From a virus (lineage: Duplodnaviria; Caudoviricetes), in IMG/VR virus record IMGVR_UViG_3300032216_000679, positions 7,408 to 71,407 of that record: a stretch of DNA of 64,000 bases; one strand, written 5' to 3'. Shown in pieces: positions 12,328-61,483 of the stretch. Below the pieces are notes generated by a model. That model was not told the origin of the DNA. It ran no database searches and was given only the letters and a program-made list of their open reading frames with translations. Each line of letters begins with the position of its first letter. Positions within the stretch are counted from its first letter, which is position 1. A program made the translations under genes and the position numbers.

Positions 12328-13920
12328 ATGGATATTAATAAAACGGCTTGGTCAACAAAAGATGGAAATATTACGCTATCAATGCCTATTGCAAAGGTAG
12401 ATAAAGAACGACGTATTGTTTCTGGATTTGCTACTCTTGATAACCTTGATCGTCAAGGAGATGTTGTTCCTGCCGAAGCAAGCGTTAAAGCATTTGAAAC
12501 ATTCCGTGGGAATATCCGTGAAATGCATCAGCCCAAGGCTGTTGGTAAAATTGTATCTTTTAAAGAAGACAAGTATTTTGATCAAGAATCAAAGAAGTTT
12601 TATAATGGAGTTTATGTTTCTGCTTATGTAAGCAAGGGCGCTCAAGACACTTGGGAAAAAGTTCTTGACGGTACGCTTACTGGATTCTCAATTGGTGGAG
12701 AGATTCATGATTCAGAAAAGGTTTATGATGAGACTCTTGGCAAATCTTATCAGGTAATTAAGGAATATTCTTTAAGTGAGTTGTCTTTAGTAGACAATCC
12801 TGCAAATCAATTTGCAAACGTTATTAGTATTGAAAAAGGACAAATGACAGGCTATCTTTCCAAGGCACTTATTGAAAATGTTTTTTGGTGCAATTCAGAT
12901 GACATTATTCGTTTATCAGATGATTCCTCATCTTCCTGCCCACAATGCGATAAGTCAATGCATAATATTGGTTTTGTTGAGAGCAATGACTCTGACAAGG
13001 CTTCAGTGGTAAAGTCAATGATTTCTGAGGCTAAGAAAATTCATATTCAAAAAGGCATTGAAGAAGGTTCTTATGTTAGTTTTGCTGAAGGTTTTGGCAA
13101 AGTTTATCAAGTTATCCTTAGTGGTGGGGTACGACTATCATCTGAAGAAATGGCATATGTTGCAAAATCAGATGACCCAATTGTGATTATTAAGGTCTAT
13201 TCACAAAATAACGGTATAATGATACCAAGCAATCGTCGCGTTATTAAAAATATTTCTTCATTAGAAAAGGTTAATGCGATTAGTAAATCACAGGTAGAGG
13301 AGGTAAGCAAGATGGAATCAAACATTATTGTAGTAGATGAAATTGAGAAGAGCATGAGCGAAACAGTTATTGAACCAGCCGCTCAGGATGCCGTTCCTAC
13401 ACATGCAATTGACAATACTCAGTCAGAGGTTGTTGGCAAGGCAAGCATGGTCGATGAAGAAGGCGCAGCACACGAGGCCACTGAGACTTCCGCTGAAGAA
13501 GAAACAGAGACACAAAAGGGTATGGCTAATTGCAAGGAATGCGGAATGTCATGTTCATCCTCTGATATGAAGGATGGAATGTGCCAAAAGTGCTATGGCA
13601 TGGGCAAGGCTGATGATTCTGCTGAAGTTGCAAAATCAATTTCAGAAATCACAGCAACTGTTGCATCTGCACTTTCCACTCTTGCTGAGACAGTAAAGGC
13701 TCTAGATGCCAAGATTGAAGGCATTAATAAGTCTGTCGCTGGATTAAGCACAGAGGTAAATGAAGTAAAAGATAGTTTTGGTAAGCGCGTGGATGCTGTA
13801 GAAAAGGACACCGCTTTCCGTAAGTCTGCTGATCTTGGCGAGATCTTGCAGGAAGTACCAACAATCGTAGAGAAATCTGCGTGGGGCGGTCGTTTCCTCA
13901 CAAATGCCGACCTATTTTAA
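12328..13920 (+). CDS. prohead protease fused to accessory domains and a scaffold region (ORF track start 12316)
   Basis: RRIVSGFATLDNLDRQGD, REMH, GFSIGG, ELSLVDNPAN; acidic linker and C-terminal coiled coil. Confidence 0.88.
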   Translation: MDINKTAWSTKDGNITLSMPIAKVDKERRIVSGFATLDNLDRQGDVVPAEASVKAFETFRGNIREMHQPKAVGKIVSFKEDKYFDQESKKFYNGVYVSAYVSKGAQDTWEKVLDGTLTGFSIGGEIHDSEKVYDETLGKSYQVIKEYSLSELSLVDNPANQFANVISIEKGQMTGYLSKALIENVFWCNSDDIIRLSDDSSSSCPQCDKSMHNIGFVESNDSDKASVVKSMISEAKKIHIQKGIEEGSYVSFAEGFGKVYQVILSGGVRLSSEEMAYVAKSDDPIVIIKVYSQNNGIMIPSNRRVIKNISSLEKVNAISKSQVEEVSKMESNIIVVDEIEKSMSETVIEPAAQDAVPTHAIDNTQSEVVGKASMVDEEGAAHEATETSAEEETETQKGMANCKECGMSCSSSDMKDGMCQKCYGMGKADDSAEVAKSISEITATVASALSTLAETVKALDAKIEGINKSVAGLSTEVNEVKDSFGKRVDAVEKDTAFRKSADLGEILQEVPTIVEKSAWGGRFLTNADLF

Positions 13921-13956
13921 CAAACAGAAAGAAAAATTTCAGGAGGTGAAAGTCAA

Positions 13957-15120
13957 ATGACAGAAGAAAACAATCTAGATACTAATCTAGTAGAAAAGAA
14001 TCAACCTGGTACAACAGGTACTGGACACGTTGGAGGTACAGCCCCTGGTCTTTACCAAGGCCAAGGCGCAGTTGCTAATACAGGCATCGGCGGCACAACC
14101 AACCTAGGTTCAGATGCTTGGGGCACAGCAGGAAATATTCCAGCAGCCAACTATGGATCAACATCAGGCCCAAATGCCGTTAATCCATCAGGTACACCAG
14201 GTGGTATTCTAAATCCCGAACAGTCTCGTCGTTTTATCGACTACGTTTGGGACGCAACAGTTCTCGCCCAAGATGGCCGTAGAGTTACAATGCGTGCAAA
14301 CACGATTGAACTTGAGAAGGTTAACGTTGGTGAGCGTGTAATTCGTGCCGCTGCTCAGGCAGAAGGTTCATACACAAACGCTGGTGCAACATTCACAAAG
14401 GTAGAACTTACCACAAAGAAGATTCGTCTTGACTGGGAGGTTTCAACAGAGGCACTTGAAGATAATATCGAAGGCTCCTCACTTGAAGACCACCTAGTTC
14501 GTTTGATGACAAATGCTTTTGGTAATGACCTTGAGGATCTTGCTATCAATGGCAATGGTGGTGCAGACCCATTCTTGGGAATCATGACTGGTTTCGTAAA
14601 GCAGGTTCAGTTCGGAACTGAATCTCACGAAGCAGTTGTTGACGTAACAAGTGGCTGGACCCCAGAAGTAATGCAACAGATCATCTATGCATTACCACGC
14701 AAGTACCGTGCAATCAAGTCTGGCCTCAAGTTCTATGCAGGCACAGACGTATTCGCAAACATTGTCAAGCATAATGGTACACTTGCCGATGCAATCGCAT
14801 CAGCACTTGATCCCCGTGTTTCTGGTACACCCCAACGCCGTGAGGATTACCTCTCAGGCATGGGCCAGACATTCGGTGGCGCTCGTACCACTCGTGTTCT
14901 TGGCATTGATGTTCAGGAAGTTCCCTACTACCCTGCGGATTTTGTAGATCTTACATTCCCACAGAACCGTGTATGGGGCTTCCAGCGCGATATCACAGTC
15001 AACCGTGAATACAAGCCCAAGAAGGACACAATTGAATACACAGTATTCGTCCGTTTTGGTCTTACATGGGAAGAACTTGATGCAGTTGCTTACGCAGATA
15101 CAAATGTATTTACATCATAA
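13957..15120 (+). CDS. major capsid protein (HK97 fold)
   Basis: GGILNPEQSRRFIDY, ELTTKKIRLDWE, DLEDLAING, QRDITVNREY; strong SD AGGAGGTG. Confidence 0.9.
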   Translation: MTEENNLDTNLVEKNQPGTTGTGHVGGTAPGLYQGQGAVANTGIGGTTNLGSDAWGTAGNIPAANYGSTSGPNAVNPSGTPGGILNPEQSRRFIDYVWDATVLAQDGRRVTMRANTIELEKVNVGERVIRAAAQAEGSYTNAGATFTKVELTTKKIRLDWEVSTEALEDNIEGSSLEDHLVRLMTNAFGNDLEDLAINGNGGADPFLGIMTGFVKQVQFGTESHEAVVDVTSGWTPEVMQQIIYALPRKYRAIKSGLKFYAGTDVFANIVKHNGTLADAIASALDPRVSGTPQRREDYLSGMGQTFGGARTTRVLGIDVQEVPYYPADFVDLTFPQNRVWGFQRDITVNREYKPKKDTIEYTVFVRFGLTWEELDAVAYADTNVFTS

Positions 15121-15137
15121 TAAAATGTGATGATGTT

Positions 15138-15167
15138 GAGGGAGGCAGCCTAAAAACTGCCTCCCTT
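15138..15167 (+). terminator. hairpin after the MCP gene
   Basis: GAGGGAGGCAG / CTGCCTCCCTT inverted repeat. Confidence 0.7.
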
Positions 15168-15177
15168 AAACATATTC

Positions 15178-15186
15178 TGATATAAT
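15178..15186 (+). promoter_or_regulatory. extended -10 TGATATAAT followed by SD AAGGAGG
   Basis: motif directly after the hairpin. Confidence 0.7.
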
Positions 15187-15203
15187 TGCAAAAGGAGGTT
15201 TAT

Positions 15204-15695
15204 ATGTCAGAGAATTTTTCAGAAATGACCGCAAGAGAATTAAAAGAATATGCTCAGATCAATAATATTGATCTTGGAGATACAAAGACAAAAACTGGTA
15301 TTATTGCAATTCTTACAGGAACAGACTCTTATTTAGCAGAAGCATTAGAGGCTTCAGAAATCACAGATGTAGAAGAGACAAGAAATGGAGATGCCATTAT
15401 GTCCGTTATTCCAGAAAGAACTGCTCCACCACAATCAAACTTAGCCCCTGTAAATAATGATGGCGTTGTAGCATCAAAGGCTGCAAGCAGACCAAAGCCC
15501 ATAGTTGAAGAAGAAGTTAAAGATATTTCAAAAAAGATTGCTCTTTGGTCACCAAAAAGTATTACTTGGGAAAATGTTGGTCGTTTAACACCTGGTTACA
15601 ATATTGTTACTAAGGAGGCTTCCGAAAAGTGGCTTACTCGCAACGGTATTAGAATTGCAACTCCAGAAGAGATGGCTACTTATTACGGAAAGTAA
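15204..15695 (+). CDS. hypothetical protein with an N-terminal Rho-N/SAP-like helical motif
   Basis: FSEMTARELKEYAQINNIDL...KTGIIAIL. Confidence 0.6.
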   Translation: MSENFSEMTARELKEYAQINNIDLGDTKTKTGIIAILTGTDSYLAEALEASEITDVEETRNGDAIMSVIPERTAPPQSNLAPVNNDGVVASKAASRPKPIVEEEVKDISKKIALWSPKSITWENVGRLTPGYNIVTKEASEKWLTRNGIRIATPEEMATYYGK

Positions 15696-15697
15696 TA

Positions 15698-16639
15698 ATG
15701 GAAATTGCTAGATTAGAACCATTCCCTATTGTTGCAAATTATTCTGGATTAGAACCAAACATAGATTATACAATTCCTATTACAGATGATCATAGTGTAT
15801 GGATAGATACACTTTATGCAACAAGCGATGAAGACGGCAATCTAGCAATTACAATGAGTGATTATTTTTCAAAATATGATGATGAATATAATCTAAAGGT
15901 TTATAATCCTGATGGCAGAATGGTACTATTTGATACTTTAACAATTATGCGACCATATTTTGATCCAAAACTTGTAGCAGAAACAGAAGAAGAACTTGCT
16001 GACATTATTTATTATGAAAGAATGGCTCGTGCAATAATTACTTCTATTACTGGAGGATTTCAGTTTCAACTTCAAAGAATTGAAGCGGTAGGTACTGGAG
16101 CAGATTTTCTTTCATTACCATATAGATTAAATAATATACTTCAAGTATACGAAAATAACATTCTTGTATATAATGCAGAAGATCCAACGTTTACTAACAT
16201 TAGAGACTATTTTATTACATTTGATCAAGCAACAATTGCTGTTGCACAAGCAGGAACTTGGGACAGAAAACAGGGTAGATCAACAAGACCACAAATACCT
16301 TCATCAGATTCATTTACTATGTACAATACTAATGATTCTCCAAATATCATTATGGATGCTATGGGAACTCCATCCTTTCCTAATGGTTGGGATTATCAAA
16401 TTTATGTTGAATCTGGATACCCCCTTATTCCTGCCGATATTTCCTACGCTGCACAACTTATTGTTAATGATATGAAATGCAATAATCTTCCTTACATAAA
16501 TCAATACATTTCTCAATATAAGAGTGATCAGTTTAATATTAATTTCCATGACTTAGCATTTAAGGATACGGGTAATAGAATCGCAGACAGAATTCTTTCT
16601 GCCTACGTCAGACCAGTTTATCGCTTAGGGGTATTGTAG
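15698..16639 (+). CDS. head-tail adaptor
   Basis: position after the MCP; GYPLIPADISYAAQLIV adaptor-like C-terminus. Confidence 0.6.
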   Translation: MEIARLEPFPIVANYSGLEPNIDYTIPITDDHSVWIDTLYATSDEDGNLAITMSDYFSKYDDEYNLKVYNPDGRMVLFDTLTIMRPYFDPKLVAETEEELADIIYYERMARAIITSITGGFQFQLQRIEAVGTGADFLSLPYRLNNILQVYENNILVYNAEDPTFTNIRDYFITFDQATIAVAQAGTWDRKQGRSTRPQIPSSDSFTMYNTNDSPNIIMDAMGTPSFPNGWDYQIYVESGYPLIPADISYAAQLIVNDMKCNNLPYINQYISQYKSDQFNINFHDLAFKDTGNRIADRILSAYVRPVYRLGVL

Positions 16640-17118
16640 TGAAAGGTTTAATGCCATGTTACAGTCTCTTTTTTCCTATGCATGTTGATGTTTATTATGC
16701 ATATGAAGAGCAAGACGATTACGGAAAAATGACCAAACAATGGATGCTTGATAGAACAGAACATTGTTCAATTTTTTCAATTAGCGATAAAGCAAATGAT
16801 GAAAACTTTACTTTTGATAGCAATAGAAGAGGAAAAGAATTTTTCAAATTAGAAACAATGCTTTATGGTAGAACTCAAACAGATTTAAGAAAATCTTCAA
16901 CTGGAGAATACTATCCAGTTTCACATATTCTTGTTAAAAATATTCGTGGGTTAGAAACTGATGAATCATTTTTTATAGAAACTCTTGCTGGATATGAAGG
17001 AGAGCCAACAATATATGAAGTTAAAGCAAATCAACCCTTTGTCGGTCCTTTTAATACTGTAGAATATTATAAGATTCAATTAGAGCGTTCTGATATTCAG
17101 GGTGAAATTACAACATGA
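16639..17118 (+). CDS. head closure/stopper protein
   Basis: synteny and size; EEQDDYGKMTKQW pattern. Confidence 0.5.
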   Translation: MKGLMPCYSLFFPMHVDVYYAYEEQDDYGKMTKQWMLDRTEHCSIFSISDKANDENFTFDSNRRGKEFFKLETMLYGRTQTDLRKSSTGEYYPVSHILVKNIRGLETDESFFIETLAGYEGEPTIYEVKANQPFVGPFNTVEYYKIQLERSDIQGEITT

Positions 17119-17789
17119 TAAAGTCAACAATAAATAGCACTAATTTAAATCAAATTTTAAAAAATGCCATAAAGTATTCTGATGGATTTATTGAAGGAAT
17201 AGAAATGGAAAAAATAGAATTTCATAGAATCTTAGGCGGGTATGCAACAGAGGCACTAGGTAAATACATAGACGCTAAGGCTAGAATGGCCCCACAGACT
17301 CTTCATCACGTTTATGAGTGGGATGCCGTTGGACAAGAATCTTCAAGACTGTTTAGTTTTAATGTTACCGCAACAAAAACAAATATCATTATTACTGGAA
17401 AATTTCTTCCATCAAAAACTATAAGCAGAAATTCTCATGTACCGTTTCCAGATAAAGCAAACATGATGGAAAATTCTATAGAGATAATTATTAAACCAAA
17501 AAATTCAGATGTTCTTGCCTTTAAGAGCGATGGAGAAATGGTGTTTACAAGAAATACTATTTATATAGATCATCCTGGTGGAGATGAAGTTGCTGGAAGT
17601 TTTGGTAATACCGTTGATGATTTTTTTAATAATTATTTTAAGAATTCATTGCTTAAAGGATTTTTGGATCAACTTTCAACTGCTAAGCAGTTTTCAGAAG
17701 ATTTTGCCGCTGGCACAAAAAACGGTAAATCTGTTGGTGTTAAGTCTGGCAGAAAATATCTTCATGTATCAGGAGTCGTTATAGAATGA
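17115..17789 (+). CDS. neck / tail completion protein
   Basis: synteny between stopper and tail terminator. Confidence 0.45.
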   Translation: MIKSTINSTNLNQILKNAIKYSDGFIEGIEMEKIEFHRILGGYATEALGKYIDAKARMAPQTLHHVYEWDAVGQESSRLFSFNVTATKTNIIITGKFLPSKTISRNSHVPFPDKANMMENSIEIIIKPKNSDVLAFKSDGEMVFTRNTIYIDHPGGDEVAGSFGNTVDDFFNNYFKNSLLKGFLDQLSTAKQFSEDFAAGTKNGKSVGVKSGRKYLHVSGVVIE

Positions 17790-18289
17790 GCCTATCAGAT
17801 TTAACTTTACCAATCCTTGCTGTCAATGGATATCTTTGGGATACTATGAAACAACTTGAACCAACATTTAATGATACTTATGGCAATACTATTCCATTTT
17901 TCCCTTTGAGTGATTCTGCAACTGGATCTGGATGGGAGAGCAAAGCATACATAATTTATGACAGAATTATGAGAACTACGCCCAATCCATTTTATCCAAT
18001 AAAAAAGGATCATATTATTTATAATGTTAAAGCAAAAGATATTGAAACATTGCAGTGGGGTTTGGCAGTTCAATATATCCTTGATAGGTATGATGATGCT
18101 GCTCAAGACATAAATGATTGGAATAGAAATAAGGGAAATCCTTATAAAGTTTATTTTCATAATTTGAGGGTATACCAAGAAGATGCTTCAGTAAATAGAA
18201 ACTTCAGCACAAGACCATTCTATATTACTCAGTTTATTGTAGAATCAGAATATCACTTTACAGAATCAATTGAATCTATATTGTCATAA
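17786..18289 (+). CDS. tail terminator protein
   Basis: synteny; directly upstream of the tail tube gene. Confidence 0.5.
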   Translation: MSLSDLTLPILAVNGYLWDTMKQLEPTFNDTYGNTIPFFPLSDSATGSGWESKAYIIYDRIMRTTPNPFYPIKKDHIIYNVKAKDIETLQWGLAVQYILDRYDDAAQDINDWNRNKGNPYKVYFHNLRVYQEDASVNRNFSTRPFYITQFIVESEYHFTESIESILS

Positions 18290-18356
18290 AAACAATATAT
18301 AATTATCTTGAGGAAACAAACCGCCAAATCAAATAAAATAGAAGAGGTGAAAAATT

Positions 18357-19037
18357 ATGGCAGATTATACCCGTGGTGATTCAAAGCAAATCATCGTAGG
18401 CGCAGCAGCACTTTTTGTTAGCACAGGAAGCGAATTTGATCCAGCAACAGGTGGAACAGACTTCCCTAACTTTGCTTCTGGTGAAAAGTACCAAAAGACA
18501 CTAACAAACTGGGCAGGCGCTCGTAACATTGGATTCACATCCAATGGACTAGAAATTCAGTTCCAGCCAAATTTTGGTGAGGTTAACGTTGATCAGTTGC
18601 TAGACGTTGCTAAGTTGTACAAGCAAGGAATGAAGGTAGACCTCAAGACTTCTTTCGCAGAAGCCACACTTGAGAACCTTCTCATTGCTATTGCAGCACC
18701 AGCATCAGACTACAGCACAAGCAAGTTAATTGATCCACTAACCGCAAATGCTTCAGGCGCAACCGCTACATCCCTCAATCTTTCCTCAGGAAACATTGGC
18801 GAATGTCCAGTAGAGCGTGGCCTCGTTGCAGTAGGTCCAGGCACAGGCGACTGTGATCCAGGCCAGTACATTGAAAGAGTATACATTGCTTACCGTGCAT
18901 TGTCAATCGACAACGTTACAGTAAATGCAAAGCGTGACGCTGCTTCAATGTTTGACGTATCATTCCGCTTGCTTCCAAATGGCGCAACAGGTTCATACGG
19001 CAAGATCATTGACCGCACAGTTTCAACTGGTTCATGA
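18357..19037 (+). CDS. major tail (tube) protein
   Basis: IIVGAAALF, NIGFTSNGLEI.FQPNF..V.VDQ, FAEATLENL; highly expressed codon style; SD GAGGTG. Confidence 0.8.
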   Translation: MADYTRGDSKQIIVGAAALFVSTGSEFDPATGGTDFPNFASGEKYQKTLTNWAGARNIGFTSNGLEIQFQPNFGEVNVDQLLDVAKLYKQGMKVDLKTSFAEATLENLLIAIAAPASDYSTSKLIDPLTANASGATATSLNLSSGNIGECPVERGLVAVGPGTGDCDPGQYIERVYIAYRALSIDNVTVNAKRDAASMFDVSFRLLPNGATGSYGKIIDRTVSTGS

Positions 19038-19065
19038 TAATTTAAAAATAACTTAATAGTCGATT

Positions 19066-19090
19066 GCCCCTCTGGAAACAGGGGGGCTTT
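19066..19090 (+). terminator. intrinsic terminator-like hairpin after the tail tube gene
   Basis: GCCCCTCTG-GAAA-CAGGGGGGC followed by TTT. Confidence 0.75.
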
Positions 19091-19095
19091 CGTCA

Positions 19096-19104
19096 TGCTA
19101 TAAT
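19096..19104 (+). promoter_or_regulatory. extended -10 TGCTATAAT for the tail chaperone gene
   Basis: motif directly after the hairpin; SD GAAAGGGA follows. Confidence 0.65.
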
Positions 19105-19132
19105 TACCTTTCAAACCTAGAAAGGGATAAAA

Positions 19133-19468
19133 ATGGCTACATCAGTTTATGAAGAAGAAGTATTGAAATTAATGGATGGTTCTGAAATTAAGATGCGTCC
19201 ATTGAAAATCTCTTTGCTTCGTGACTTTATGAAAAAGTTTGATACTGTTGTTGAGGTTGCCTCCTCCAATGTTGATTCAATGGATATTCTTGTTGAATGT
19301 GCAATGATTGCTATGAAGCAGTACCGTCCAGAACTTGCTCAAGATAGAGAAAAGTTTGAAGACGTTGCAGATATTAAAATGGTCTACAAGATCATTGAGG
19401 TTGCTTCTGGCATCAAGTTGGACGCAGAGGGAAACGATCTAGCGGCGGGACTACTTGGAACGAACTAG
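19133..19468 (+). CDS. tail assembly chaperone (gpG-like)
   Basis: lies between tail tube and tape measure; slippery heptamer near its 3' end. Confidence 0.8.
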   Translation: MATSVYEEEVLKLMDGSEIKMRPLKISLLRDFMKKFDTVVEVASSNVDSMDILVECAMIAMKQYRPELAQDREKFEDVADIKMVYKIIEVASGIKLDAEGNDLAAGLLGTN

Positions 19469-19836
19469 ATCTCGCCACAATTGAGGCAGAGGTTTTTCTT
19501 TTAGGCAATTGGAAAGATTTTGCTGAGTTAGAAGATAGTCTTTCCATGCCTGAACTTACCGCTACTCTTACAGCGGCAAGAGATATAGAAGAAAGAAAAA
19601 ATCGTTTTCTCGCTGCCATTCAAGGTATAGATCTTGATGGATCTTCTTCTCCTGAAAAGGGACAAAAAGAATGGGAAGACATGAAGGCCAGAGTCTTTAG
19701 TGGCGGCACGGCAACAGACTCTAATGATATTATTTCCTTACAAGGAATCAATGCTGCTAAGGCTGGATTTGGTATTGGCGACGGCCTTGATTATGTCAAT
19801 ACTATAGATAATAATTCTATAAATCCCTTTGCCTAA
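19133..19836 (+). CDS. frameshift-extended tail assembly chaperone (gpGT-like); includes track ORF 19546..19836
   Basis: the -1 frame reads ...SGGTTWNELDLATIEAEVFLLGNWKDFAELEDSLSMPELTATL... Confidence 0.75.
19429..19435 (+). other. -1 programmed ribosomal frameshift site G GGA AAC
   Basis: X XXY YYZ heptamer in the chaperone frame; the -1 frame is open from 19399 to the stop at 19836. Confidence 0.8.
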
Positions 19837-19837
19837 A

Positions 19838-19846
19838 TGATATAAT
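19838..19846 (+). promoter_or_regulatory. extended -10 TGATATAAT upstream of the tape measure gene
   Basis: motif; SD GGTGA follows. Confidence 0.6.
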
Positions 19847-19865
19847 TAATAATGGTGAATAATTA

Positions 19866-51932: not shown

Positions 51933-52024
51933 TGTGAGATGAATCACAAACATATAAAATATTAGGCATCTGTCAAAAGAAAGATGTTATCCTAGAATAA
52001 TGTTGCCGCCGCAAGGAGGAACAA

Positions 52025-52558: not shown

Positions 52559-52562
52559 TAGT

Positions 52563-52613: not shown

Positions 52614-52614
52614 C

Positions 52615-52623
52615 TGCTATAAT
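52615..52623 (+). promoter_or_regulatory. extended -10 TGCTATAAT for the terminase operon
   Basis: motif directly after the hairpin; SD AGGGAG follows. Confidence 0.7.
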
Positions 52624-52642
52624 TGTCCCTTTAGGGAGAACA

Positions 52643-53161: not shown

Positions 53162-54935
53162 TTTTAGTTCTTTTATGGAGGCACTAGATGATTCTCCATT
53201 TGAAGAAACTCCAGTAGATTTAGAAACATTTTTACATTCAGAAGATTTTTTGAATCAACCAGAACTTTCTCAAATTCAAAGAGATCTTGTAGAAGCAATG
53301 AGCCAAATCTACAAAGAAGAAGATCTAATTAGATTTATGGGTGAAAAAGAGGGCAGGGCACATTACAAGAAATATACTAAGGGTGAAGTAATTCTTCAAT
53401 GTGGCAAAGGTAGTGGAAAGGATCACACATCAACCATCGGTTGTGCTTATTTAGTTTATAAACTAATGTGTCTAAAAGATCCTGCGAGATACTTTGGCAA
53501 GCCTCCTGGCGATGCTATTGACATTATCAATATTGCTATTAACGCACAGCAGGCTAGAAATGTATTCTTTAAAGGGTTCAAGAATAAGATTGAGCGTTGT
53601 CCTTGGTTTGCTGGCAAGTACGATCCAAAAGCAGATAGTGTAGAGTTCGATAAGGCCATAACGGTCTATTCAGGCCACTCAGAGCGTGAATCACACGAGG
53701 GTCTAAATCTTATCCTTGCCATCCTTGACGAGATCTCTGGCTTTGCTCAGGACTCAGCAAGTGGCAATGAGAACGCAAAGACTGGTGATGCAATTTATAA
53801 AGCATTCAAGGCGTCAGTTGATTCACGTTTTCCAGACTATGGAAAAGTAATTCTTCTTTCATTCCCCCGCTACCCAGGAGATTTTATTTCCAAGCGGTAT
53901 GATGATGTTGTTGTTGAAAAAGAAGTTATCTACAAGAATCATAAGTTTATTATTGATCCAGATCTCCCACCTGATATAGAAGGAAATAATTTTGAAATTG
54001 AATGGGAAGAGGATCATATTATTTCTTACAGATATCCTGGAATCTTTGCCATTAAACGTCCGACATGGGACGTAAATCCTACTCGCAGCATTGAAGATTT
54101 TAAGATCTCATTTTTAACAGATCATGCAGATGCAATGCAAAGATTTGCTTGTATGCCATCATTTGCTTCTGATGCATTTTTTAAGCAGAGAGATAAACTT
54201 GAAAAGTGTATGAGTTTGAGAAATCCAATTGATGTATATAAAAGAATAGAGCCAACATTTGTTCCAGATGAAGATAAGATTTATTTTCTTCATGCCGATC
54301 TTGCACAAAAGCATGACAAGTGCGCTGTAGCAATTTCTCATGTACAGAAATGGGTAGAAGTAAAATCATTCAATGACTATACCCAGATTGTTCCATTTGT
54401 TATTGTGGATGCAATAGTGTGGTGGGAACCTCGTAAAGAAGGTCCAGTAGATCTTTCTGAGGTTAAGAATTGGATTGTAGATTTTAGGCGACAGGGATTC
54501 AATATAGGAATGGTAACCTTTGACCGTTGGCAGTCATTTGATATTCAACAGGAACTTAAGACGGTAGGAATCAAAACAGATACATTATCGGTGGCAAAGA
54601 AGCACTACGAGGATCTTGCCATGCTTATTTATGAAGAGCGAGTTGCTGCCCCTCATATTGATTTGCTTCTTGAGGAAATGGGTGAGTTAAGAATTGTTTC
54701 TGATAAGAAGGTTGACCATCCAAGAAAGAAGTCTAAGGACTTGGCTGACGCTATGTGTGGAGCGGTATATAATGCAATTAGTCACACGCCTCGCAATAGA
54801 AATCAAGAGATAGAAATTCATGATTGGAAATCTATCAGTAGATCAAATGAACAAAAACAAAAAGACGTTATCTCTGCTCCACCAAAACCAACACAAGATG
54901 TCTCTGAGTATCTTTCATCTTTTGGATTTTTCTAG
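53151..54935 (+). CDS. terminase large subunit
   Basis: GKGSGKD Walker A, AINAQQA, ILDEISGF Walker B, SFPRY, HADLAQKHD and SKDLADA nuclease motifs. Confidence 0.9.
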   Translation: MTIDFSSFMEALDDSPFEETPVDLETFLHSEDFLNQPELSQIQRDLVEAMSQIYKEEDLIRFMGEKEGRAHYKKYTKGEVILQCGKGSGKDHTSTIGCAYLVYKLMCLKDPARYFGKPPGDAIDIINIAINAQQARNVFFKGFKNKIERCPWFAGKYDPKADSVEFDKAITVYSGHSERESHEGLNLILAILDEISGFAQDSASGNENAKTGDAIYKAFKASVDSRFPDYGKVILLSFPRYPGDFISKRYDDVVVEKEVIYKNHKFIIDPDLPPDIEGNNFEIEWEEDHIISYRYPGIFAIKRPTWDVNPTRSIEDFKISFLTDHADAMQRFACMPSFASDAFFKQRDKLEKCMSLRNPIDVYKRIEPTFVPDEDKIYFLHADLAQKHDKCAVAISHVQKWVEVKSFNDYTQIVPFVIVDAIVWWEPRKEGPVDLSEVKNWIVDFRRQGFNIGMVTFDRWQSFDIQQELKTVGIKTDTLSVAKKHYEDLAMLIYEERVAAPHIDLLLEEMGELRIVSDKKVDHPRKKSKDLADAMCGAVYNAISHTPRNRNQEIEIHDWKSISRSNEQKQKDVISAPPKPTQDVSEYLSSFGFF

Positions 54936-54964
54936 TTGACATAGGCATCAATATGGCCTACAAT
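54936..54964 (+). promoter_or_regulatory. near-consensus sigma70/sigmaA promoter
   Basis: TTGACA-17 nt-TACAAT. Confidence 0.8.
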
Positions 54965-54986
54965 ATTCACAACATTAGGAGAAAAA

Positions 54987-55163
54987 ATGATTCTTGCATT
55001 TCTTATTATTTCTTTAGTAATTTGGACGCTATCTTGTATTGTAAATCTTTACACGATTGCAGAACAATCTAAAGAATCTAATATATCATCATTGACAACT
55101 ATTTCTTTAGGAATCAATCTTGTCATGCTTACTCTTAATATTTTTTGTATAACTGTCATATAA
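54987..55163 (+). CDS. small membrane protein with two TM segments (58 aa); absent from the ORF track
   Basis: SD AGGAG; MILAFLIISLVIWTLSCIVNLY...ISLGINLVMLTLNIFCITVI. Confidence 0.65.
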   Translation: MILAFLIISLVIWTLSCIVNLYTIAEQSKESNISSLTTISLGINLVMLTLNIFCITVI

Positions 55164-55169
55164 CTATAC

Positions 55170-55244
55170 GCGGCGGTAGCCTAGTTTGGTTTTGGCAGCG
55201 GTCTTATAAACCGTCAATCGTGGGTTCAAATCCCACCCGCCGTA
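55170..55244 (+). tRNA. tRNA-Ile (anticodon UAU)
   Basis: acceptor GCGGCGG/CCGCCGT, discriminator A, anticodon arm GCGGT-CTTATAA-ACCGT, T arm GTGGG-TTCAAAT-CCCAC; no encoded CCA. Confidence 0.85.
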
Positions 55245-55248
55245 CTCC

Positions 55249-55257
55249 TGATATAAT
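55249..55257 (+). promoter_or_regulatory. extended -10 TGATATAAT, 6 nt before GTG (leaderless)
   Basis: motif and spacing. Confidence 0.65.
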
Positions 55258-55263
55258 TTATTT

Positions 55264-55449
55264 GTGAGGATAGAGATTGAACCCGCTGCTGGTCAAAGGT
55301 ATAAGGGAGAACTTTTCATTGATGGAGAGTTAGTAGAAATGGTTTTTGACAAAAGGCCAGGATGTTGTGCAAGATCTCTTATGAATCAAATACTTTTTAA
55401 GTATGGACACCCAGAGGGAAAAATAACTTTAGAGATAGATGGATGGTAA
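55264..55449 (+). CDS. hypothetical protein
   Basis: 61-aa ORF with its own promoter. Confidence 0.6.
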   Translation: MRIEIEPAAGQRYKGELFIDGELVEMVFDKRPGCCARSLMNQILFKYGHPEGKITLEIDGW

Positions 55450-55452
55450 AAA

Positions 55453-55767
55453 ATGCCTTGGATAATTAGAAGAGCAGGATCGAAGTATGAGGTTGTTGTT
55501 GAAGGAACTGGTCGTGTAGTAGGAACTCACGAGACAAGAACAGAAGCAGCCGCTCAAGTTGGTGCCTTATATGCCAATGTTCCTGAAGCAGAAACAAGCA
55601 AGATTCAAGATTCTGGTCCTACCCCTCCAGTGGATGGTTCGGGAAGTATTAGCAATCAAGATACTATTAATACAAATACTAGAGTTGTTAATGGTTCTAA
55701 TTCAAATAAAAAGAAACCAAAACATCAATTTTGGGATGGATTTTTTTTCCCAAGACGTAATCCATAA
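55453..55767 (+). CDS. hypothetical protein, MPW...GTH.T...A..Q..ALYAN domain plus a C-terminal W-D-G-F-F tag
   Basis: translation; C-terminus resembles that of the scaffold. Confidence 0.7.
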   Translation: MPWIIRRAGSKYEVVVEGTGRVVGTHETRTEAAAQVGALYANVPEAETSKIQDSGPTPPVDGSGSISNQDTINTNTRVVNGSNSNKKKPKHQFWDGFFFPRRNP

Positions 55768-55786
55768 TTCATGATAAAATGAAGGA

Positions 55787-56092
55787 GTGAGTATGCAAAT
55801 ATTTGCAACACTTATTCCTTGGGTGGTATGTGTAATATTTTTGCTTTTGATATTAAAAAATAATTCAAAAAATACAAATGAAGAATTTATAGATTATGAA
55901 GATGAAGAAGAATCTGTGAGAGTAGCAATACTTGACGATAAGGCTTATTGGGTGTATCATAATACACTGTACGAAACAGATGTATATGATGGCGATCCAG
56001 ACTTTGATTCCGCTCAACCTGTGGATACTATGAGTTTGCCACATAAAGAACTGAATAGACTTCTATATATTCTTGATTCGTTAGCAGAATAA
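55787..56092 (+). CDS. membrane-anchored hypothetical protein
   Basis: N-terminal TM segment, acidic body; TGATAAAAT 6 nt upstream. Confidence 0.7.
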   Translation: MSMQIFATLIPWVVCVIFLLLILKNNSKNTNEEFIDYEDEEESVRVAILDDKAYWVYHNTLYETDVYDGDPDFDSAQPVDTMSLPHKELNRLLYILDSLAE

Positions 56093-56113
56093 AACAAAGG
56101 AAAGGAAACTTTA

Positions 56114-56458
56114 ATGAACATCGTTGTTCAGGGTACAAAGGAATTTGTTGACTACAACGTCTTTATGCGTGCAATGGGCGTTGCACTATCAACAATTGAT
56201 GATGAGGAATTTAATGTTTACTCAGTAGGTCCTACCCAAATTAATTCATTTACCGCTGAGTTCTGCAATCTTTCAGAGAATGGATTAAAACGACGAGGCA
56301 TTAAGACACGTTTCTTTAAGGTGCCTACTTCATATATTGAAGAGCATATGGAAGATTTTGATTATTTCGCCTTTCTCTCTACCCCGAATCAGCGACCGTC
56401 TAAGTTGGTTGCACAGGCAGAACTTTCGGGAGTAGAGTGTGGAATCTTTAGATACTAG
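56114..56458 (+). CDS. hypothetical protein, possibly SLOG/Rossmann-like
   Basis: MNIVVQGTKEFVDYNVF N-terminus; SD AAGGAAAGG. Confidence 0.55.
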   Translation: MNIVVQGTKEFVDYNVFMRAMGVALSTIDDEEFNVYSVGPTQINSFTAEFCNLSENGLKRRGIKTRFFKVPTSYIEEHMEDFDYFAFLSTPNQRPSKLVAQAELSGVECGIFRY

Positions 56459-56466
56459 GAGATTTC

Positions 56467-56826
56467 ATGTTGAGCAGAAAGGATTTTGCCTATCTTAGTG
56501 TTGCGCGATACCTTGCAACAAAGTCAACTGCAAGAAATACTCATGGCGCTGTCGTTGTAAAAGGCGGCAGAGTTTTGGGTACTGGTTTTAATAAAGATAG
56601 AAATCATCCAAAGATAGTCTCTCCAGAACATATTAAAACAGATTGCTCTACTCATGCAGAAGAGGTTGCAATTCGTGATGCTGGAGAGGATAATATCAAG
56701 GGTGCAATTATTTATGTTGCACGAGTAAACCGTCATGGTAACGATAGGGATAGCAAGCCCTGCCCTCGCTGTAGTAAGTTGATTGAGCGAGTAGGTATTA
56801 AGCGAGTTATTTTTACATCTCAATAG
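56467..56826 (+). CDS. cytidine/dCMP deaminase-family protein
   Basis: HGAVVV...GFN, THAEEVAI, SKPCPRC. Confidence 0.88.
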   Translation: MLSRKDFAYLSVARYLATKSTARNTHGAVVVKGGRVLGTGFNKDRNHPKIVSPEHIKTDCSTHAEEVAIRDAGEDNIKGAIIYVARVNRHGNDRDSKPCPRCSKLIERVGIKRVIFTSQ

Positions 56827-56834
56827 GAGAAAAA

Positions 56835-57065
56835 ATGGTAGTAACAAATTTAGATTACATGGAAAGCATTGTTTCATCACGCCATGACCTTGAATGGGAT
56901 GGTTGGAATGTTATTAAATATACAAAAGATCCTAATGGCTTTTCATCAGTTGATGGTGTATTTAGAAAAGGCATGTGGTTTAAGAAGAGAGTATTTTCAT
57001 TAACAGAAAAGGGATGGAACATTCCTGAAAACATTGGGCGTCGTCATGCACAAATGGAAGGATGA
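56835..57065 (+). CDS. hypothetical protein
   Basis: SD AGGAG; LEWDGWNV. Confidence 0.7.
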   Translation: MVVTNLDYMESIVSSRHDLEWDGWNVIKYTKDPNGFSSVDGVFRKGMWFKKRVFSLTEKGWNIPENIGRRHAQMEG

Positions 57066-57327
57066 AGCCAAATGTTTGGGAATGGACACCAACCTCTTCT
57101 TTGACAAATATGAAGAAGATCATTTTATAGCAAGAGCAATTGACAAACTTTGTCAAGCGTGTCCAGTAAATAAAACATGCTTTTCTGTCGGTGTGTCAAA
57201 TAAAGAATGGGGTGTTCATGGTGGTGTATACTTAAAAGAAGGTAGCATAGATAAGGAGTTTAATTCTCATAAGTCAAGACAAGATTGGGCTGACGTATGG
57301 GAATCCTTAACAATGGAGATGCAATGA
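57046..57327 (+). CDS. whiB: WhiB-family Fe-S transcription factor (track start 57034)
   Basis: W...AKC...LFF...CQACPV...C...GVHGG. Confidence 0.88.
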   Translation: MHKWKDEAKCLGMDTNLFFDKYEEDHFIARAIDKLCQACPVNKTCFSVGVSNKEWGVHGGVYLKEGSIDKEFNSHKSRQDWADVWESLTMEMQ

Positions 57328-57587
57328 TTTATACACCAAAAATAAAAGCAGAAGTTCATTCTATTCCAGTTCCATCTGACTTTGTTATGGATATTGTTGA
57401 GTACCCATTTAATCCACCCTATCTTGCATTGAGATTTTATGAAAGTCATTGGAGACATATGTCTGACAATGAAAGAATTAAATGCATTGAGTATATGGCT
57501 AAAGTAAAAAGAATTATAGAATCCTATGGCATTAATGTAACTACCGACCCAGTATATGATTTACCTGGCGGTCAGGAAATAGGATGA
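57324..57587 (+). CDS. hypothetical protein (track start 57297)
   Basis: ATGA coupling on both sides. Confidence 0.7.
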   Translation: MIYTPKIKAEVHSIPVPSDFVMDIVEYPFNPPYLALRFYESHWRHMSDNERIKCIEYMAKVKRIIESYGINVTTDPVYDLPGGQEIG

Positions 57588-58636
57588 GTATTTTTATTTC
57601 AATTGCATCATATCGTGATTTAGAATTAGTCAAAACTGTCGAAAGCATTTATGACAATGCACAAAATCCAGACGATTTGATCTTTGGAATAGTATCTCAA
57701 GATTATAACAACAAGCATCCAGATTTTAGTTGGCTTGGCGATCAATTGCGAATGCGTAAAATGCTTTTTACTGAAGCAAAGGGTGCTGGATATGCAAGAA
57801 AAATTGCAATGGAATTATATGATGAGGAGGATTATTTCTTTCAAATAGATTCTCATATGAGATTTGCAAAAGGATGGGATACAAAATTAAAAGAAATGAT
57901 TTCTATTTGTCAAAAGGAACAAGGTACAGATAAAATAATTTTAAGTCAATTCCCAGCACCTTATGAAATCTTTACAGATGGCACAGAAAATTTTCCTATT
58001 GCAGATGAAGATTTTTGGAGCGATCCTTCTTGGACAAGTGTTGTTAATACTGCAACAGGAGTTTGGGCGGGACATAGAGAAAAGATTGAGAATAAAAATA
58101 AACCTCACTATTCTCACACAGTCTTGGGCGCTTTGATATTTGCTCCTGGATATATAACAAAAGAAATTCCATATGATGAAAGAATTTCTTTTATGGGAGA
58201 AGAATTGTGTTTTGCTATTCGTGCATATACTAGAGGCTGGCATATATATGCACCTAATGAAATGATTGCTTGGCATTTTTATACAAGAAAAGATAGGCCA
58301 AAAATATGGCATGACAACTTTGCAAAAAGAAGTTGGACAAATATCGAAATGGAATCTCAAAGAATTCAAAAAAATATTTTGTTGGCAGTTGAGCAGGGCA
58401 CATATGGAGTCGATGACTATAAAAAATATGTTGACTATCAAAAAATGATAGGAATAAACTTTGAAGAATTTTATGCCAGTGGAATAATTGATGAAAAAAT
58501 AAATATGGCATCTATTATTGAAGAACTTGATTTCTTTAGTCCAAGAAGAACAGGGTATTGTTTAAATGGAATGCATTCTTTATGTAAAATTAAACAATGT
58601 GAATGTAAATGTCATATAATAAAGGAAGATAAATGA
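57584..58636 (+). CDS. glycosyltransferase, GT60 / Skp1 GlcNAc-transferase-like
   Basis: SIFISIASYRD, GAGYAR, YFFQIDSHMRFAKGWD, FMGEE, RAYTRGW, WHFY. Confidence 0.8.
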   Translation: MSIFISIASYRDLELVKTVESIYDNAQNPDDLIFGIVSQDYNNKHPDFSWLGDQLRMRKMLFTEAKGAGYARKIAMELYDEEDYFFQIDSHMRFAKGWDTKLKEMISICQKEQGTDKIILSQFPAPYEIFTDGTENFPIADEDFWSDPSWTSVVNTATGVWAGHREKIENKNKPHYSHTVLGALIFAPGYITKEIPYDERISFMGEELCFAIRAYTRGWHIYAPNEMIAWHFYTRKDRPKIWHDNFAKRSWTNIEMESQRIQKNILLAVEQGTYGVDDYKKYVDYQKMIGINFEEFYASGIIDEKINMASIIEELDFFSPRRTGYCLNGMHSLCKIKQCECKCHIIKEDK

Positions 58637-59253
58637 TGCAGCAAATAGTTATTCCGTGGAGAGATGCTGGATGTGGTTACAGGCTTAGGTCATTTAATTT
58701 TTTATGTGATTACTATTCAAAAAAATATGAAATAGTAATTGGAGATAAAAGCGATATTCATGGTAATTTTAGTAGATCTGGTTCTAGAAATGATGGAGTA
58801 TCAAAAACTGACGGGGAAATTGTTATTGTTATTGATTCTGATAATTACATAAACGTTTCTCAAATTGAAAAAGCAATAGATGCTGCATTAAATAACAATG
58901 TTTTAGTAAAGCCTAACTCTAAGTTCGGTTATGTTAGTGAAGAGTCAACACAGAACTTTTATAATGGTAAGAAAATTTCGCTTGATTTAGTAGATTTTCA
59001 AAGTCCTCCAGCAAGTTTTTTTCACGGTGGGGCGTATGTTATAAAAAGAAGTCTTTGGGATTTCGTTGGGGGTATGGATGAAGAATTTATTGGATACGGG
59101 GGAGAAGATGATGCATTTCATATCTCATGTGAAAGCAAACTTGGTAAAACTATTTGGATAAAAGGATACGATTATCATCTATATCATCCAGCGAATAGAG
59201 TGACGCCAAAAGAGAATTACAATAGGCTCATGGAATTCTACCCAGAAGGATAA
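58633..59253 (+). CDS. GT-A glycosyltransferase (GT2/GT7-like)
   Basis: IVIPWR, FSRSGSRN, IDSD, VGGMDEEFIGYGGEDD, HLYH. Confidence 0.82.
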   Translation: MMQQIVIPWRDAGCGYRLRSFNFLCDYYSKKYEIVIGDKSDIHGNFSRSGSRNDGVSKTDGEIVIVIDSDNYINVSQIEKAIDAALNNNVLVKPNSKFGYVSEESTQNFYNGKKISLDLVDFQSPPASFFHGGAYVIKRSLWDFVGGMDEEFIGYGGEDDAFHISCESKLGKTIWIKGYDYHLYHPANRVTPKENYNRLMEFYPEG

Positions 59254-59254
59254 A

Positions 59255-59983
59255 ATGAAGAGCATTGCTGCAATTCCAGTAAAAAATAAGATAGAGTGGA
59301 CAGCGCCGCTCATTGAGCATTTGCTTTTAGCAGATACGCTTGATGAAGTGTGGCTATATGATAATGGAAGCACAGATCTAACAAATGATTGGGTGCTCCA
59401 TAGAATGAAAACGGACAGAAGACTTAAATTAATTAATGCTGCTGGCATGAGGTTGTATGATATGTGGAATCATATGATAAAAACTGCAAGCGTATTAGAC
59501 AATCAAGTTAATCTTGCTATTCTTAATAATGATATTCGTCTTGCTCCTAATGCTATTTATGATATATCTACAATAATGAGATTAAGTAACTATACTATTG
59601 CTACTATTGATCCAACACTTACTTCAATATTTACTCCTGCGATAAATGAATATAAAGGTGGCTCTACATTAGCCAAACCAATTGATCCATATCCAGAAAA
59701 GGTGACTCCAGATAAAAGAATTGGATATGCTTTTGTAGTAGCAGCAGAGTTTTGGAAAGATAAAGAATACGCAATTCATCCAGATTTTATTATTTGGTGG
59801 GGAGATGACGATTTGTTTTTAAGGGCGGCAAAGGATGGAGCAACAATATGTCTTGTGAGGGGCATAGGATGCGATCATGCAGAAAGTAGAACTTTAAACG
59901 AAGATCCCAATAGAAATACTAACATAGAATTAGATAGAGAAACATTTAAAAGAATGAAAGACAATGGATGCTATAATAGATAA
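59255..59983 (+). CDS. GT2-family glycosyltransferase
   Basis: AAIPV, YDNGSTD, LNND, WWGDDD. Confidence 0.8.
   Translation: MKSIAAIPVKNKIEWTAPLIEHLLLADTLDEVWLYDNGSTDLTNDWVLHRMKTDRRLKLINAAGMRLYDMWNHMIKTASVLDNQVNLAILNNDIRLAPNAIYDISTIMRLSNYTIATIDPTLTSIFTPAINEYKGGSTLAKPIDPYPEKVTPDKRIGYAFVVAAEFWKDKEYAIHPDFIIWWGDDDLFLRAAKDGATICLVRGIGCDHAESRTLNEDPNRNTNIELDRETFKRMKDNGCYNR
59969..59977 (+). promoter_or_regulatory. extended -10 TGCTATAAT, 7 nt before ATG 59985 (leaderless)
   Basis: motif inside the 3' end of the GT2 gene. Confidence 0.65.
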
Positions 59984-59984
59984 C

Positions 59985-60425
59985 ATGGAAGAGTTAATTA
60001 GTGCATTAAAATCACTAGTTGCAGATCAATATGTCGTTTATCATAAGGCTCACGGCTATCACTGGAATGTAGAAGGTATTCACTTTGCCATGTTCCACGA
60101 TCTCTTTGCTGAAATTTATGAAGATGTTTATGATTCAATTGACCCCACAGCAGAAAATATTCGTAAAATTGGTGGGTATGCTCCATTTACAATGACTAGA
60201 TTACAAGAACTTAGAACAATTCCCGATGTAGATGTATCAACTAATCCAATGGATATGGTTGAGGATCTTTATAATGCAAACATGATGATCATTCAGTCAA
60301 TTGTCAAAATATTTGATCTCGCTACCTCTCTTAATGAGCAGGGAATTGCAAATCTTATGGCAGATCGCCAAGACATGCACGAGAAATGGTGCTGGCAATT
60401 GCGTGTTTCCATGAAACAATTCTGA
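59985..60425 (+). CDS. dps: Dps / ferritin-like DNA protection protein (track start 59964)
   Basis: KAHGYHWNVEG..F...H..F..IY, D..AENIR..G, HEK..W. Confidence 0.9.
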   Translation: MEELISALKSLVADQYVVYHKAHGYHWNVEGIHFAMFHDLFAEIYEDVYDSIDPTAENIRKIGGYAPFTMTRLQELRTIPDVDVSTNPMDMVEDLYNANMMIIQSIVKIFDLATSLNEQGIANLMADRQDMHEKWCWQLRVSMKQF

Positions 60426-60426
60426 A

Positions 60427-60645
60427 ATGTACTTTCTGAAAGAATCTAGATCTGGCCTCAAATGGACAGCAGAGTTGTGGGAAAAACAATGGTCAGAAGA
60501 ACTATCTTCATATACAACTAATTTAATAACTAAAAAAGATTTTTGGTATTGGAATGGCTCCTTGTTTTGGGCAAGGAAATATTTTTTTGATTTAATGATA
60601 AATAATGGCGAATTAACAATAAGGAGAAAAAATGAGCAAGGATAA
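60427..60645 (+). CDS. Trp-rich hypothetical protein
   Basis: 72-aa ORF filling the gap after dps. Confidence 0.5.
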   Translation: MYFLKESRSGLKWTAELWEKQWSEELSSYTTNLITKKDFWYWNGSLFWARKYFFDLMINNGELTIRRKNEQG

Positions 60646-60805
60646 TGATGTTGTAAGTTTTACTTTAAACAACACTATTCAAAGAATTGCAAAGATTGTA
60701 AATAACTATGAAATTGAAATTGCTAATCTCACAATGGAACTTGTCAAGACTCAGTTAGAGTTAGATGAATTAAAGGCCACGCCGCCCACTAAAACAAAGC
60801 CATGA
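60632..60805 (+). CDS. small coiled-coil protein (57 aa); absent from the ORF track
   Basis: SD AAGGAG; MSKDNDVVSFTLNNTIQRIAKIVNNYEIEIANLTMELVK... Confidence 0.65.
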   Translation: MSKDNDVVSFTLNNTIQRIAKIVNNYEIEIANLTMELVKTQLELDELKATPPTKTKP

Positions 60806-60811
60806 TAGAAT
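60803..60811 (+). promoter_or_regulatory. extended -10 TGATAGAAT, 6 nt before ATG (leaderless)
   Basis: motif and spacing. Confidence 0.6.
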
Positions 60812-60817
60812 AGTTAT

Positions 60818-61096
60818 ATGAATAACAATCTTTCTAAGAAAGACTACAACACAACAGACCGTCGTAGAATGTCTCAGTCAGGTGTAGCAATGTCTGACGG
60901 ATCATTCCCCATTGCCAATAGAGATGATTTGGCTAATGCCATTCAGTCAGTTGGTCGTGCATCTAATTACGATGCTGCTCGCCGTCATATCATCTCTCGT
61001 GCCCGTGCTCTTGGAGCAGTATCAATGCTGCCAAAAGAATGGAATGTAACGAAAGATATTTGGGGCGGAAGTTTTGCTCCATTCAAGAAGGCATAA
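60818..61096 (+). CDS. hypothetical protein (DUF6582-like) with a C-terminal KDIWGGSF tag
   Basis: G.AMSDGSFPI...DLANAI...GRA...RRHI..RARALG...LP..W. Confidence 0.75.
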   Translation: MNNNLSKKDYNTTDRRRMSQSGVAMSDGSFPIANRDDLANAIQSVGRASNYDAARRHIISRARALGAVSMLPKEWNVTKDIWGGSFAPFKKA

Positions 61097-61483
61097 ATGT
61101 CTATCATAGTTGATATTGATGGAACAATGCTTTTTCATGGAAAAACTCCTATTAAGCGTGTTATCGACTATGTAAATTCTCAGGGTACTGTTTATGTTAT
61201 CACCGCACGACCAGAATCAAGAAGGCCAGAAACTGTTGCTGCATTAAAAAATGCTGGAGTAAGTTACAATAGGCTAATGATGAACTCTGTTGGTCCATCT
61301 CATAAGGATGGCGTAGAATCAAAACGTCGTCACGCAAAATCTTTGAGTGGAGTGACAGAGGCAATTGATAATGATGCTGATGTTCGCAGAATGTATGAAA
61401 GTCTTGGATTAAAGGCTGTTAATCCATCATCTATTGGTAAATCAATTTGGGCGGGAGCATTTACTAAGTGGAAGACGATCTAG
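61097..61483 (+). CDS. HAD-family phosphatase (polynucleotide 3'-phosphatase-like) with a C-terminal KSIWAGAF tag
   Basis: IIVDIDGT, VITARP, K, AIDND. Confidence 0.82.
   Translation: MSIIVDIDGTMLFHGKTPIKRVIDYVNSQGTVYVITARPESRRPETVAALKNAGVSYNRLMMNSVGPSHKDGVESKRRHAKSLSGVTEAIDNDADVRRMYESLGLKAVNPSSIGKSIWAGAFTKWKTI

Follow-up and report, generated by a model that had tools for sequence, protein, structure and literature searches.

A scaffold-type C-terminal peptide on accessory proteins of a tailed phage: a candidate tag for loading cargo into the prohead

Why should a small phosphatase and two other accessory proteins of a tailed phage end in the same short peptide as the scaffold of its head? 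The question is raised by the IMG/VR record IMGVR_UViG_3300032216_000679, a 71,407-bp viral contig (G+C 37%, genes almost all on the plus strand), of which bases 7408–71407 make up the 64,000-nucleotide stretch analyzed here (the window, to whose positions all our coordinates refer) and whose closest cultured relatives are the 130-kb Streptomyces siphophages of the Stanwilliamsviridae. The carriers of the peptide, recognized by the motif W-x-G-x-F, are an S78 protease-scaffold fusion, a 92-aa (amino acid) three-helix protein, a 128-aa HAD phosphatase and a 104-aa protein (Table 1). A preliminary description of this DNA had proposed that the phage marks proteins for incorporation into the head with the peptide of its scaffold, which would bind the major capsid protein, and that the packaged proteins are used for injection or DNA maturation. 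The core of this idea has gained strong comparative support from the conservation of the tail within each family, its presence on at least five domain architectures, the flexible linkers preceding it, the joining of these cargo domains to the prohead protease or portal as single proteins in other phages, and a parallel change of the scaffold and cargo tails in a divergent lineage, while the receptor, the presence in proheads or virions and the purpose stand as predictions. We consider it probable, judging from sequence comparisons, that the tail is a scaffold-derived prohead-loading tag, which takes its carriers into the head; with somewhat less assurance we propose the major capsid protein as its specific receptor.

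The motif counts were made for the whole genome (87 plus-strand open reading frames, ORFs; 23,043 aa). W-x-G-x-F is matched four times, with the tryptophan always 11 or 12 residues from the C-terminus, while random 20-mers of the same composition would supply only 0.056 such C-termini per proteome; for the stricter pattern K-x-x-W-[GA]-G-x-F three cases compare with 0.00015 expected on the same basis. The four ORFs and the tail coordinates of the preliminary description all proved exact, and, in agreement with it, none of the replication or tail proteins among the genome's ORFs contains the motif. A motif that is short and was defined post hoc, after the data had been seen, invites the suspicion that the resemblance is due to chance or is a functionless leftover of common ancestry. 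We find this hardly credible: the tail is conserved in four families whose remaining parts do not align, and the suspicion is effectively refuted by two further observations, namely that in 20,000 randomisations the observed counts were never attained and that independent contigs show a C-terminal excess (p ~1e-13). Nineteen related contigs were fetched whole, and the enrichment was computed on 12 non-redundant ones (294,224 aa), in which the last 20 residues of proteins contain 20 of the 33 matches to W-x-G-x-F and 16 of the 20 matches to [KR]-x-x-W-x-G-x-[FIL] (binomial p 8e-14); matches to the scaffold 8-mer with a BLOSUM score of 28 or more in the related contigs are all C-terminal. A scan of this kind had been suggested in the preliminary description, and it places the motif far above chance both here and in the relatives; the recurrence in independent genomes removes the concern about post hoc choice. 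The codons under the tails are unlike at synonymous positions, which indicates selection on the peptide rather than on the DNA, and on this ground a DNA-level repeat or regulatory element was rejected. A literature search with the motif strings retrieved no relevant paper.

The protease-scaffold exceeds the Pfam cut-offs for both PF14550 (Peptidase_S78_2; 25.5 bits, cut-off 24) and PF04586 (Peptidase_S78; 22.6 bits, cut-off 21), and matches the head maturation protease family phrog_9427 with an E-value of 2e-116. It is composed of an S78 protease domain, a Zn-ribbon-like segment, a β domain, a disordered region, a long helix and a flexible end; the AlphaFold2 (AF2) model assigns the protease to residues ~10–160, the β domain to 253–319, the helix to 434–502 and the disordered regions to 322–433 and 503–524. 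The tail (residues 520–534 of 534) is therefore the extreme C-terminus, located beyond the helix and a disordered stretch. Homologs of the scaffold were found at no fewer than 594 loci in IMG/VR, and in the 56 distinct sequences whose tails were compared the W, the G at +2, the F at +4 and the L at +5 are invariant, and position −3 is occupied by K or R. The corresponding W523, G525, F527 and L528 are also invariant across 15 diverse homologs. The tail remains nearly invariant down to ~40% identity and is better conserved than the remaining scaffold region, with a middle part (~residues 250–460, ~200 residues) that cannot be aligned, as would fit a docking peptide. Protein gp24 of the Streptomyces phage Sham ends alike, with W-G-G-R-F-L; a tag search of the whole Sham genome revealed a clear tail on the scaffold only, and the same was true of 80 IMG/VR loci searched within 10 kb of the protease.

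Two further observations concern the scaffold itself. Its internal β domain (window 13072–13272), predicted with a pLDDT of 70–80, is 32% identical (blastp E-value 2e-5) to a module of a tagged 517-aa protein from the related contig G008, suggesting that the scaffold was built from the same pool of modules as the cargo proteins. In G024:C1:55703-57466 (L328), the match to the scaffold homolog shows one in-frame TAA, yet a 593-aa ORF with a normal tail is called.

Within each of the accessory families the tail is kept across 40–95% identity, behind linkers that are variable or disordered. In the 104-aa family (alignment A2), W94, G96, F98, F99 and P100 are invariant despite a 38-aa indel in the linker. 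The 92-aa family comprises 147 homologs; both W82 and the D-G-S-F-P-I signature are invariant in the 25-sequence alignment A1, and the 106 anchored tails exhibit K at −3 in 88 cases and F, L or I at +4 in 104. The AF2 model of the 92-aa protein combines a core with a pLDDT of ~90 and an unstructured tail (the last 17 residues, 76–92; pLDDT ~50); a Foldseek search of the PDB with this fold gave no match. The profile-profile alignment (hhalign) of the 92-aa family with the scaffolds covers 13 tail columns and nothing else, which excludes a hidden homology between them. The phosphatase was identified by Pfam (Acid_phosphat_B, 30.2 bits, cut-off 27) and by its match to phrog_415, and its catalytic motifs I and IV are intact (D6, D8, T10, D91 and N92 are invariant in alignment A4). 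The W-x-G-x-[FLI] tail is present in 41 of its 52 homologs, 36 of these with K at −3 and 37 with G at +2, and 14 of the 41 end directly after the F of the motif, so whatever follows F lies outside the tag and is dispensable. Two features that mark a cargo tag are found here: the same short terminal peptide on unrelated proteins, and a flexible linker between the peptide and the folded domain. Three of the families (scaffold, 92-aa and phosphatase) conserve the tripeptide [ILV]-x-K just ahead of the W; to judge from the sequence, this tripeptide might be a protease site that frees the cargo from the shell, but it could equally be a part of the binding motif.

The preliminary description regarded the carriers as otherwise unrelated, which holds for their folds but not entirely for their functions, as the 92-aa protein and the phosphatase are linked: their genes are adjacent, and in some relatives they are fused. 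In P0159 and P0160 the phosphatase and the DGSFPI domain are joined naturally, in the order reverse to that of the window genes, and a single terminal tail is kept. In the window (60818–61483) no nucleotide separates the two genes: the TAA that ends the 92-aa gene is followed at once by the ATG of the phosphatase gene.

Independent support for a location in the head comes from the fact that the same passengers are elsewhere attached to proteins of the prohead interior; a study of polyvalent proteins argued for virion delivery likewise, from attachment to head components (Iyer et al. 2017, PMC5512222). In a census of the 80 best IMG/VR loci, the phosphatase was found in several arrangements, including single ORFs with the prohead protease or the portal (Table 1), and a Pfam check of 10 such fusions identified S78 in nine and the portal in one. 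The DGSFPI domain constitutes a very large module family (5,100 cluster representatives) and likewise occurs fused to portals. Its giant members showed portal or portal-like PHROGs matches in three of eight proteins scanned and no S78 domain in the 10 scanned against Pfam, and the domain itself matches the C-terminal end of the phrog_80 head maturation proteases, albeit weakly (E-value 2e-4, no stretch passing alone). DUF5824 forms part of a tagged protein and also of phosphatase-protease fusions. It could be argued that the tail binds instead a factor unrelated to the capsid but common to the carriers, e.g. a host chaperone, an AAA+ protease (as a degron or via an adaptor) or a membrane site, the more so as the tagged genes lie outside the head module, among genes of replication and nucleotide metabolism, and short C-terminal peptides often are degrons or hub-binding motifs. 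We give this explanation little credence: it accounts neither for the fusions of the same domains to the prohead protease and portal, nor for the co-occurrence of the tail with one scaffold type described below, and we know of no degron or clamp motif that would match the tail.

Ferritin-like domains (PF00210, E-value ~1e-16) were also found embedded in prohead protease-scaffold proteins, with the order S78-Tudor-Ferritin-tail in a 1063-aa protein (L295:8327-11518, contig G019) and HAD-Ferritin-S78 in a 605-aa protein (L263:1489-3303). Ferritin-like proteins are the classic encapsulin cargo, and the embedded domains therefore look like a phage capsid carrying one.

In the related contigs the tail occurs on further proteins (Table 1), which brings the number of domain architectures to at least five (S78-scaffold, DGSFPI domain, HAD, MPW domain, Tudor/DUF5872, WhiB). 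The end of the multi-module carriers, W-G-G-S-[IV]-F-D-L-N-P-F, echoes the D-L-F end of the scaffold, and the 517-aa representative in G008 possesses also DUF5824. The WhiB carrier points to a host among the Actinobacteria and to the possible packaging of a regulator. Large DGSFPI-domain proteins of other phage lineages (P0189–P0336) end in other recurrent C-terminal peptides, of an acidic S-L-M-E-F-E type, an M-S-G-G-D...L-R-L-L-T type and a Y-R-L-Q-M-H type, which may be lineage-specific counterparts of the tag.

If scaffold and cargo share a docking site, do their tails change together? In lineage A, to which the window belongs, the scaffold and phosphatase tails both read K-S-aliphatic-W-x-G-x-F. 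In lineage B (contigs G019, G020 and G023), with a capsid protein only 37–40% identical to that of the window, the protease-scaffold (867–1063 aa) ends with E-[SG]-F-W-G-G-x-F-V-P and the phosphatase of the same contigs with E-G-[FL]-W-[EQ]-G-L-F. The residues flanking the W thus differ between the lineages in parallel on both proteins, which we count in favor of the loading tag. Strict co-variation of scaffold and cargo within lineage A was ruled out, as the scaffold tail is invariant there. In all 11 of the fetched contigs with both a W-x-G-x-[FL]-tailed accessory protein and a recovered scaffold gene, the scaffold bears the W-x-G-x-F tail (11/11), with no counter-example.

Several observations weigh against a loading tag. 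The co-variation between lineages A and B amounts to one evolutionary event and is suggestive rather than statistical. A normal scaffold tail is accompanied by an untagged phosphatase and MPW protein in G025 and by a tail-less 92-aa homolog in G018, while G002 and G004 (a complete 115-kb genome) possess no tagged accessory protein at all. In G007, G010 and G011 the tails of the 92-aa family drift, losing the G or even the W, while the scaffold tail stays fixed, which means that either a wide range of sequences can bind or these tails serve another role. Finally, the tagged genes lie in the region of replication and nucleotide metabolism and not in the head module, so that their late co-expression can only be presumed.

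Which component of the head would the tail bind? The C-terminus of the P22 scaffold binds the coat protein and, to our knowledge, so does the extreme C-terminus of every scaffold studied experimentally. The capsid protein is also the most conserved partner (66–92% identity to that of the window in lineage-A contigs; 37–49% in G010, G011 and lineage B); neither the capsid protein nor the scaffold sequence found a match among solved structures. Or perhaps the tail targets the prohead by another receptor, such as the portal, the protease domain acting as an exosite, or the scaffold coiled coil, which would leave the incorporation into the head unchanged? In favor of such a receptor, other phages have cargo domains fused not only to the protease but also to the portal, and the conserved [ILV]-x-K would suit recognition by the protease; nevertheless, we consider such a receptor unlikely in view of the coat binding by known scaffolds, including that of phage 80α (PMC5644958), and the conservation of the capsid protein.

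The nearest experimental precedent is provided by the same phage: the 80α scaffolding protein and the CpmB protein of the satellite SaPI1 have a common stretch of 16 C-terminal residues, which forms a helix-and-hook and binds the N-arm of the capsid protein within the procapsid (PMC5644958). As here, a non-scaffold protein bears the C-terminal peptide of the scaffold, but CpmB is a satellite-encoded competitor that alters the capsid size, while our carriers are phage-encoded enzymes and regulators, and the RIIK motif is unrelated to W-x-G-x-F. The precedent raises the possibility that the tagged proteins are not cargo but compete for the docking site of the scaffold, tuning the timing of assembly, the capsid size or the release of the scaffold, a role to which the small, helical 92-aa protein would lend itself. 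We find this improbable, since assembly is unlikely to be regulated by a WhiB factor, by multi-module proteins or by a phosphatase whose catalytic motifs are intact, and the same domains ride as passengers on the protease and portal in other phages.

Comparison of the proposed loading tag with other known systems reveals both similarities and differences. In T4, too, a short peptide, the capsid targeting sequence of IPI-III and Alt, directs unrelated proteins into the prohead, and in both cases the tag may be removed at a protease site; however, the T4 peptide lies at the N-terminus, attaches to the scaffolding core and is cleaved by the S77 protease gp21 behind a Leu/Ile-x-Glu site, while here the tag is C-terminal, the protease belongs to S78 and the cleavage is conjectural. 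Encapsulin loading peptides are likewise short, C-terminal, placed behind flexible linkers on enzymes and associated with an HK97-fold shell, to which the tail examined here is similar by its predicted function, and ferritin-like domains occur among the passengers in the relatives of this phage. In contrast to encapsulins, the shell is here that of a genuine phage head, which has a portal and a protease and packages DNA, and the scaffold ends in the same peptide; moreover, the encapsulin consensus is of the Gly-Ser-Leu type, which W-x-G-x-F does not match. The tail thus lacks the defining features of both the T4-type targeting sequence and the encapsulin loading peptide. In HK97, Duda, Oh and Hendrix are said to have found in 2013 that the S78 protease gp4 enters the prohead by its C-terminal part; there, the scaffold is fused to the capsid protein (delta domain), unlike in our phage, and we know of no report of natural reuse of the gp4 signal on other proteins. 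Polyvalent proteins and MuF-portal fusions resemble the present case in that passengers are attached to head components, as seen here for the phosphatase, DUF5824 and DGSFPI domains, but that attachment is covalent, as opposed to a detachable peptide tag on free-standing proteins (PMC5512222).

The loading mechanism that we propose would run as follows. The last ~8–15 residues of the scaffold (core K-x-x-W-x-G-x-F) would dock it inside the assembling procapsid, most likely on the major capsid protein. In this phage and its relatives, small accessory proteins would have acquired copies of the peptide at their C-termini, set off by flexible linkers, and the tagged proteins (the HAD phosphatase, the DGSFPI-domain protein and the MPW-domain protein; in relatives also the WhiB factor and the Tudor/DUF5872 module proteins) would co-assemble into the prohead as low-copy cargo, while other phage lineages would place the same domains in the head by covalent fusion to the prohead protease or portal. 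We infer that the tail binds the capsid interior and that its carriers become enclosed in proheads or virions, from which the cargo would presumably be ejected into the host. By a slight preference, we extend this to a large siphophage clade, related to Stanwilliamsviridae and probably growing on low-GC freshwater Actinobacteria, which may practice an encapsulin-like loading: a C-terminal peptide copied from the scaffold would dock enzymes and regulators on the inner face of the capsid protein, the cargo would be delivered with the DNA, and lineages would switch freely between the tag and fusion to the protease or portal.

The principle is already known from the 80α scaffolding protein and CpmB, the T4 targeting sequence and encapsulin loading peptides; the C-terminal, scaffold-derived phage variant that we propose is new. 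The natural tags known to us lie at the N-terminus, as in T4, or come from satellites (CpmB) or from encapsulins. If our prediction is correct, this would be the first natural C-terminal cargo tag derived from a scaffold in a tailed phage with an S78 protease, and would connect phage scaffolds functionally with encapsulin loading peptides. The simple rule "ends in K-x-x-W-x-G-x-F" would then predict capsid-riding proteins across hundreds of uncultured phages, including a phosphatase and a WhiB-type transcription factor that may act in the first moments of infection, and the natural tag of 8 residues would lend itself to the loading of proteins into HK97-fold capsids.

Table 1. Carriers of the tail, candidate receptors and arrangements of the phosphatase (positions are those of the window unless a contig or a locus count is given).
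Feature	Location	Strand	Tail	Basis
Prohead protease-scaffold fusion, 534 aa	12316..13920	+		Pfam, phrog_9427, AF2 model
Scaffold C-terminal tail, K-S-A-W-G-G-R-F-L, then D-L-F end	13873..13917	+	K520-F534; core K520-F527, 13873-13896	
104-aa protein (MPW domain): ~45-aa N-terminal domain, low-complexity linker	55453..55767	+	K90-P104 (55720-55764); motif 55720-55746	alignment A2
92-aa three-helix DGSFPI-domain protein	60818..61096	+	K79-A92 (61052-61093); motif 61052-61075	alignment A1, AF2
128-aa capless HAD phosphatase (PNKP / acid-phosphatase-B type)	61097..61483	+	K115-I128 (61439-61480); motif 61439-61462	Pfam, phrog_415
Major capsid protein (HK97 fold), presumed tail receptor	13957..15120	+		Pfam Phage_capsid
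Portal protein, alternative receptor candidate	10660..12294	+		Pfam Phage_portal, E 1e-31
Tudor-like/DUF5872 carriers, 239 aa and 201 aa	G001, G021			
Tagged 274-aa protein with Hva1_TUDOR domain	G007			
Multi-module carriers with DGSFPI domain, 356-517 aa	G008, G009, G012		W-G-G-S-[IV]-F-D-L-N-P-F at end	
Tagged WhiB factor, 81 aa	G020, L321:10393-10638	-	W-G-G-S-F, like scaffold of same phage	PF02467, E 3e-12
Tagged 146-aa protein	G020			
Phosphatase and Peptidase_S78 prohead protease in single ORF	32/80 loci			
Phosphatase joined to portal protein	4/80 loci			
Phosphatase free-standing, with W-tail	24/80 loci			
Phosphatase free-standing, without W-tail	11/80 loci			
Phosphatase in other long or truncated ORFs	9/80 loci			

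As to the genomic neighborhood, the window contains the portal and tail genes, and a terminase is annotated in the related phage Sham. A 1267-aa ORF (window 6470–10273), located between ribonucleotide reductase and the portal, shows no Pfam match at an E-value of 0.01 or better; its syntenic counterpart in phage Sham is gene 20, which codes for a hypothetical protein of 954 aa.

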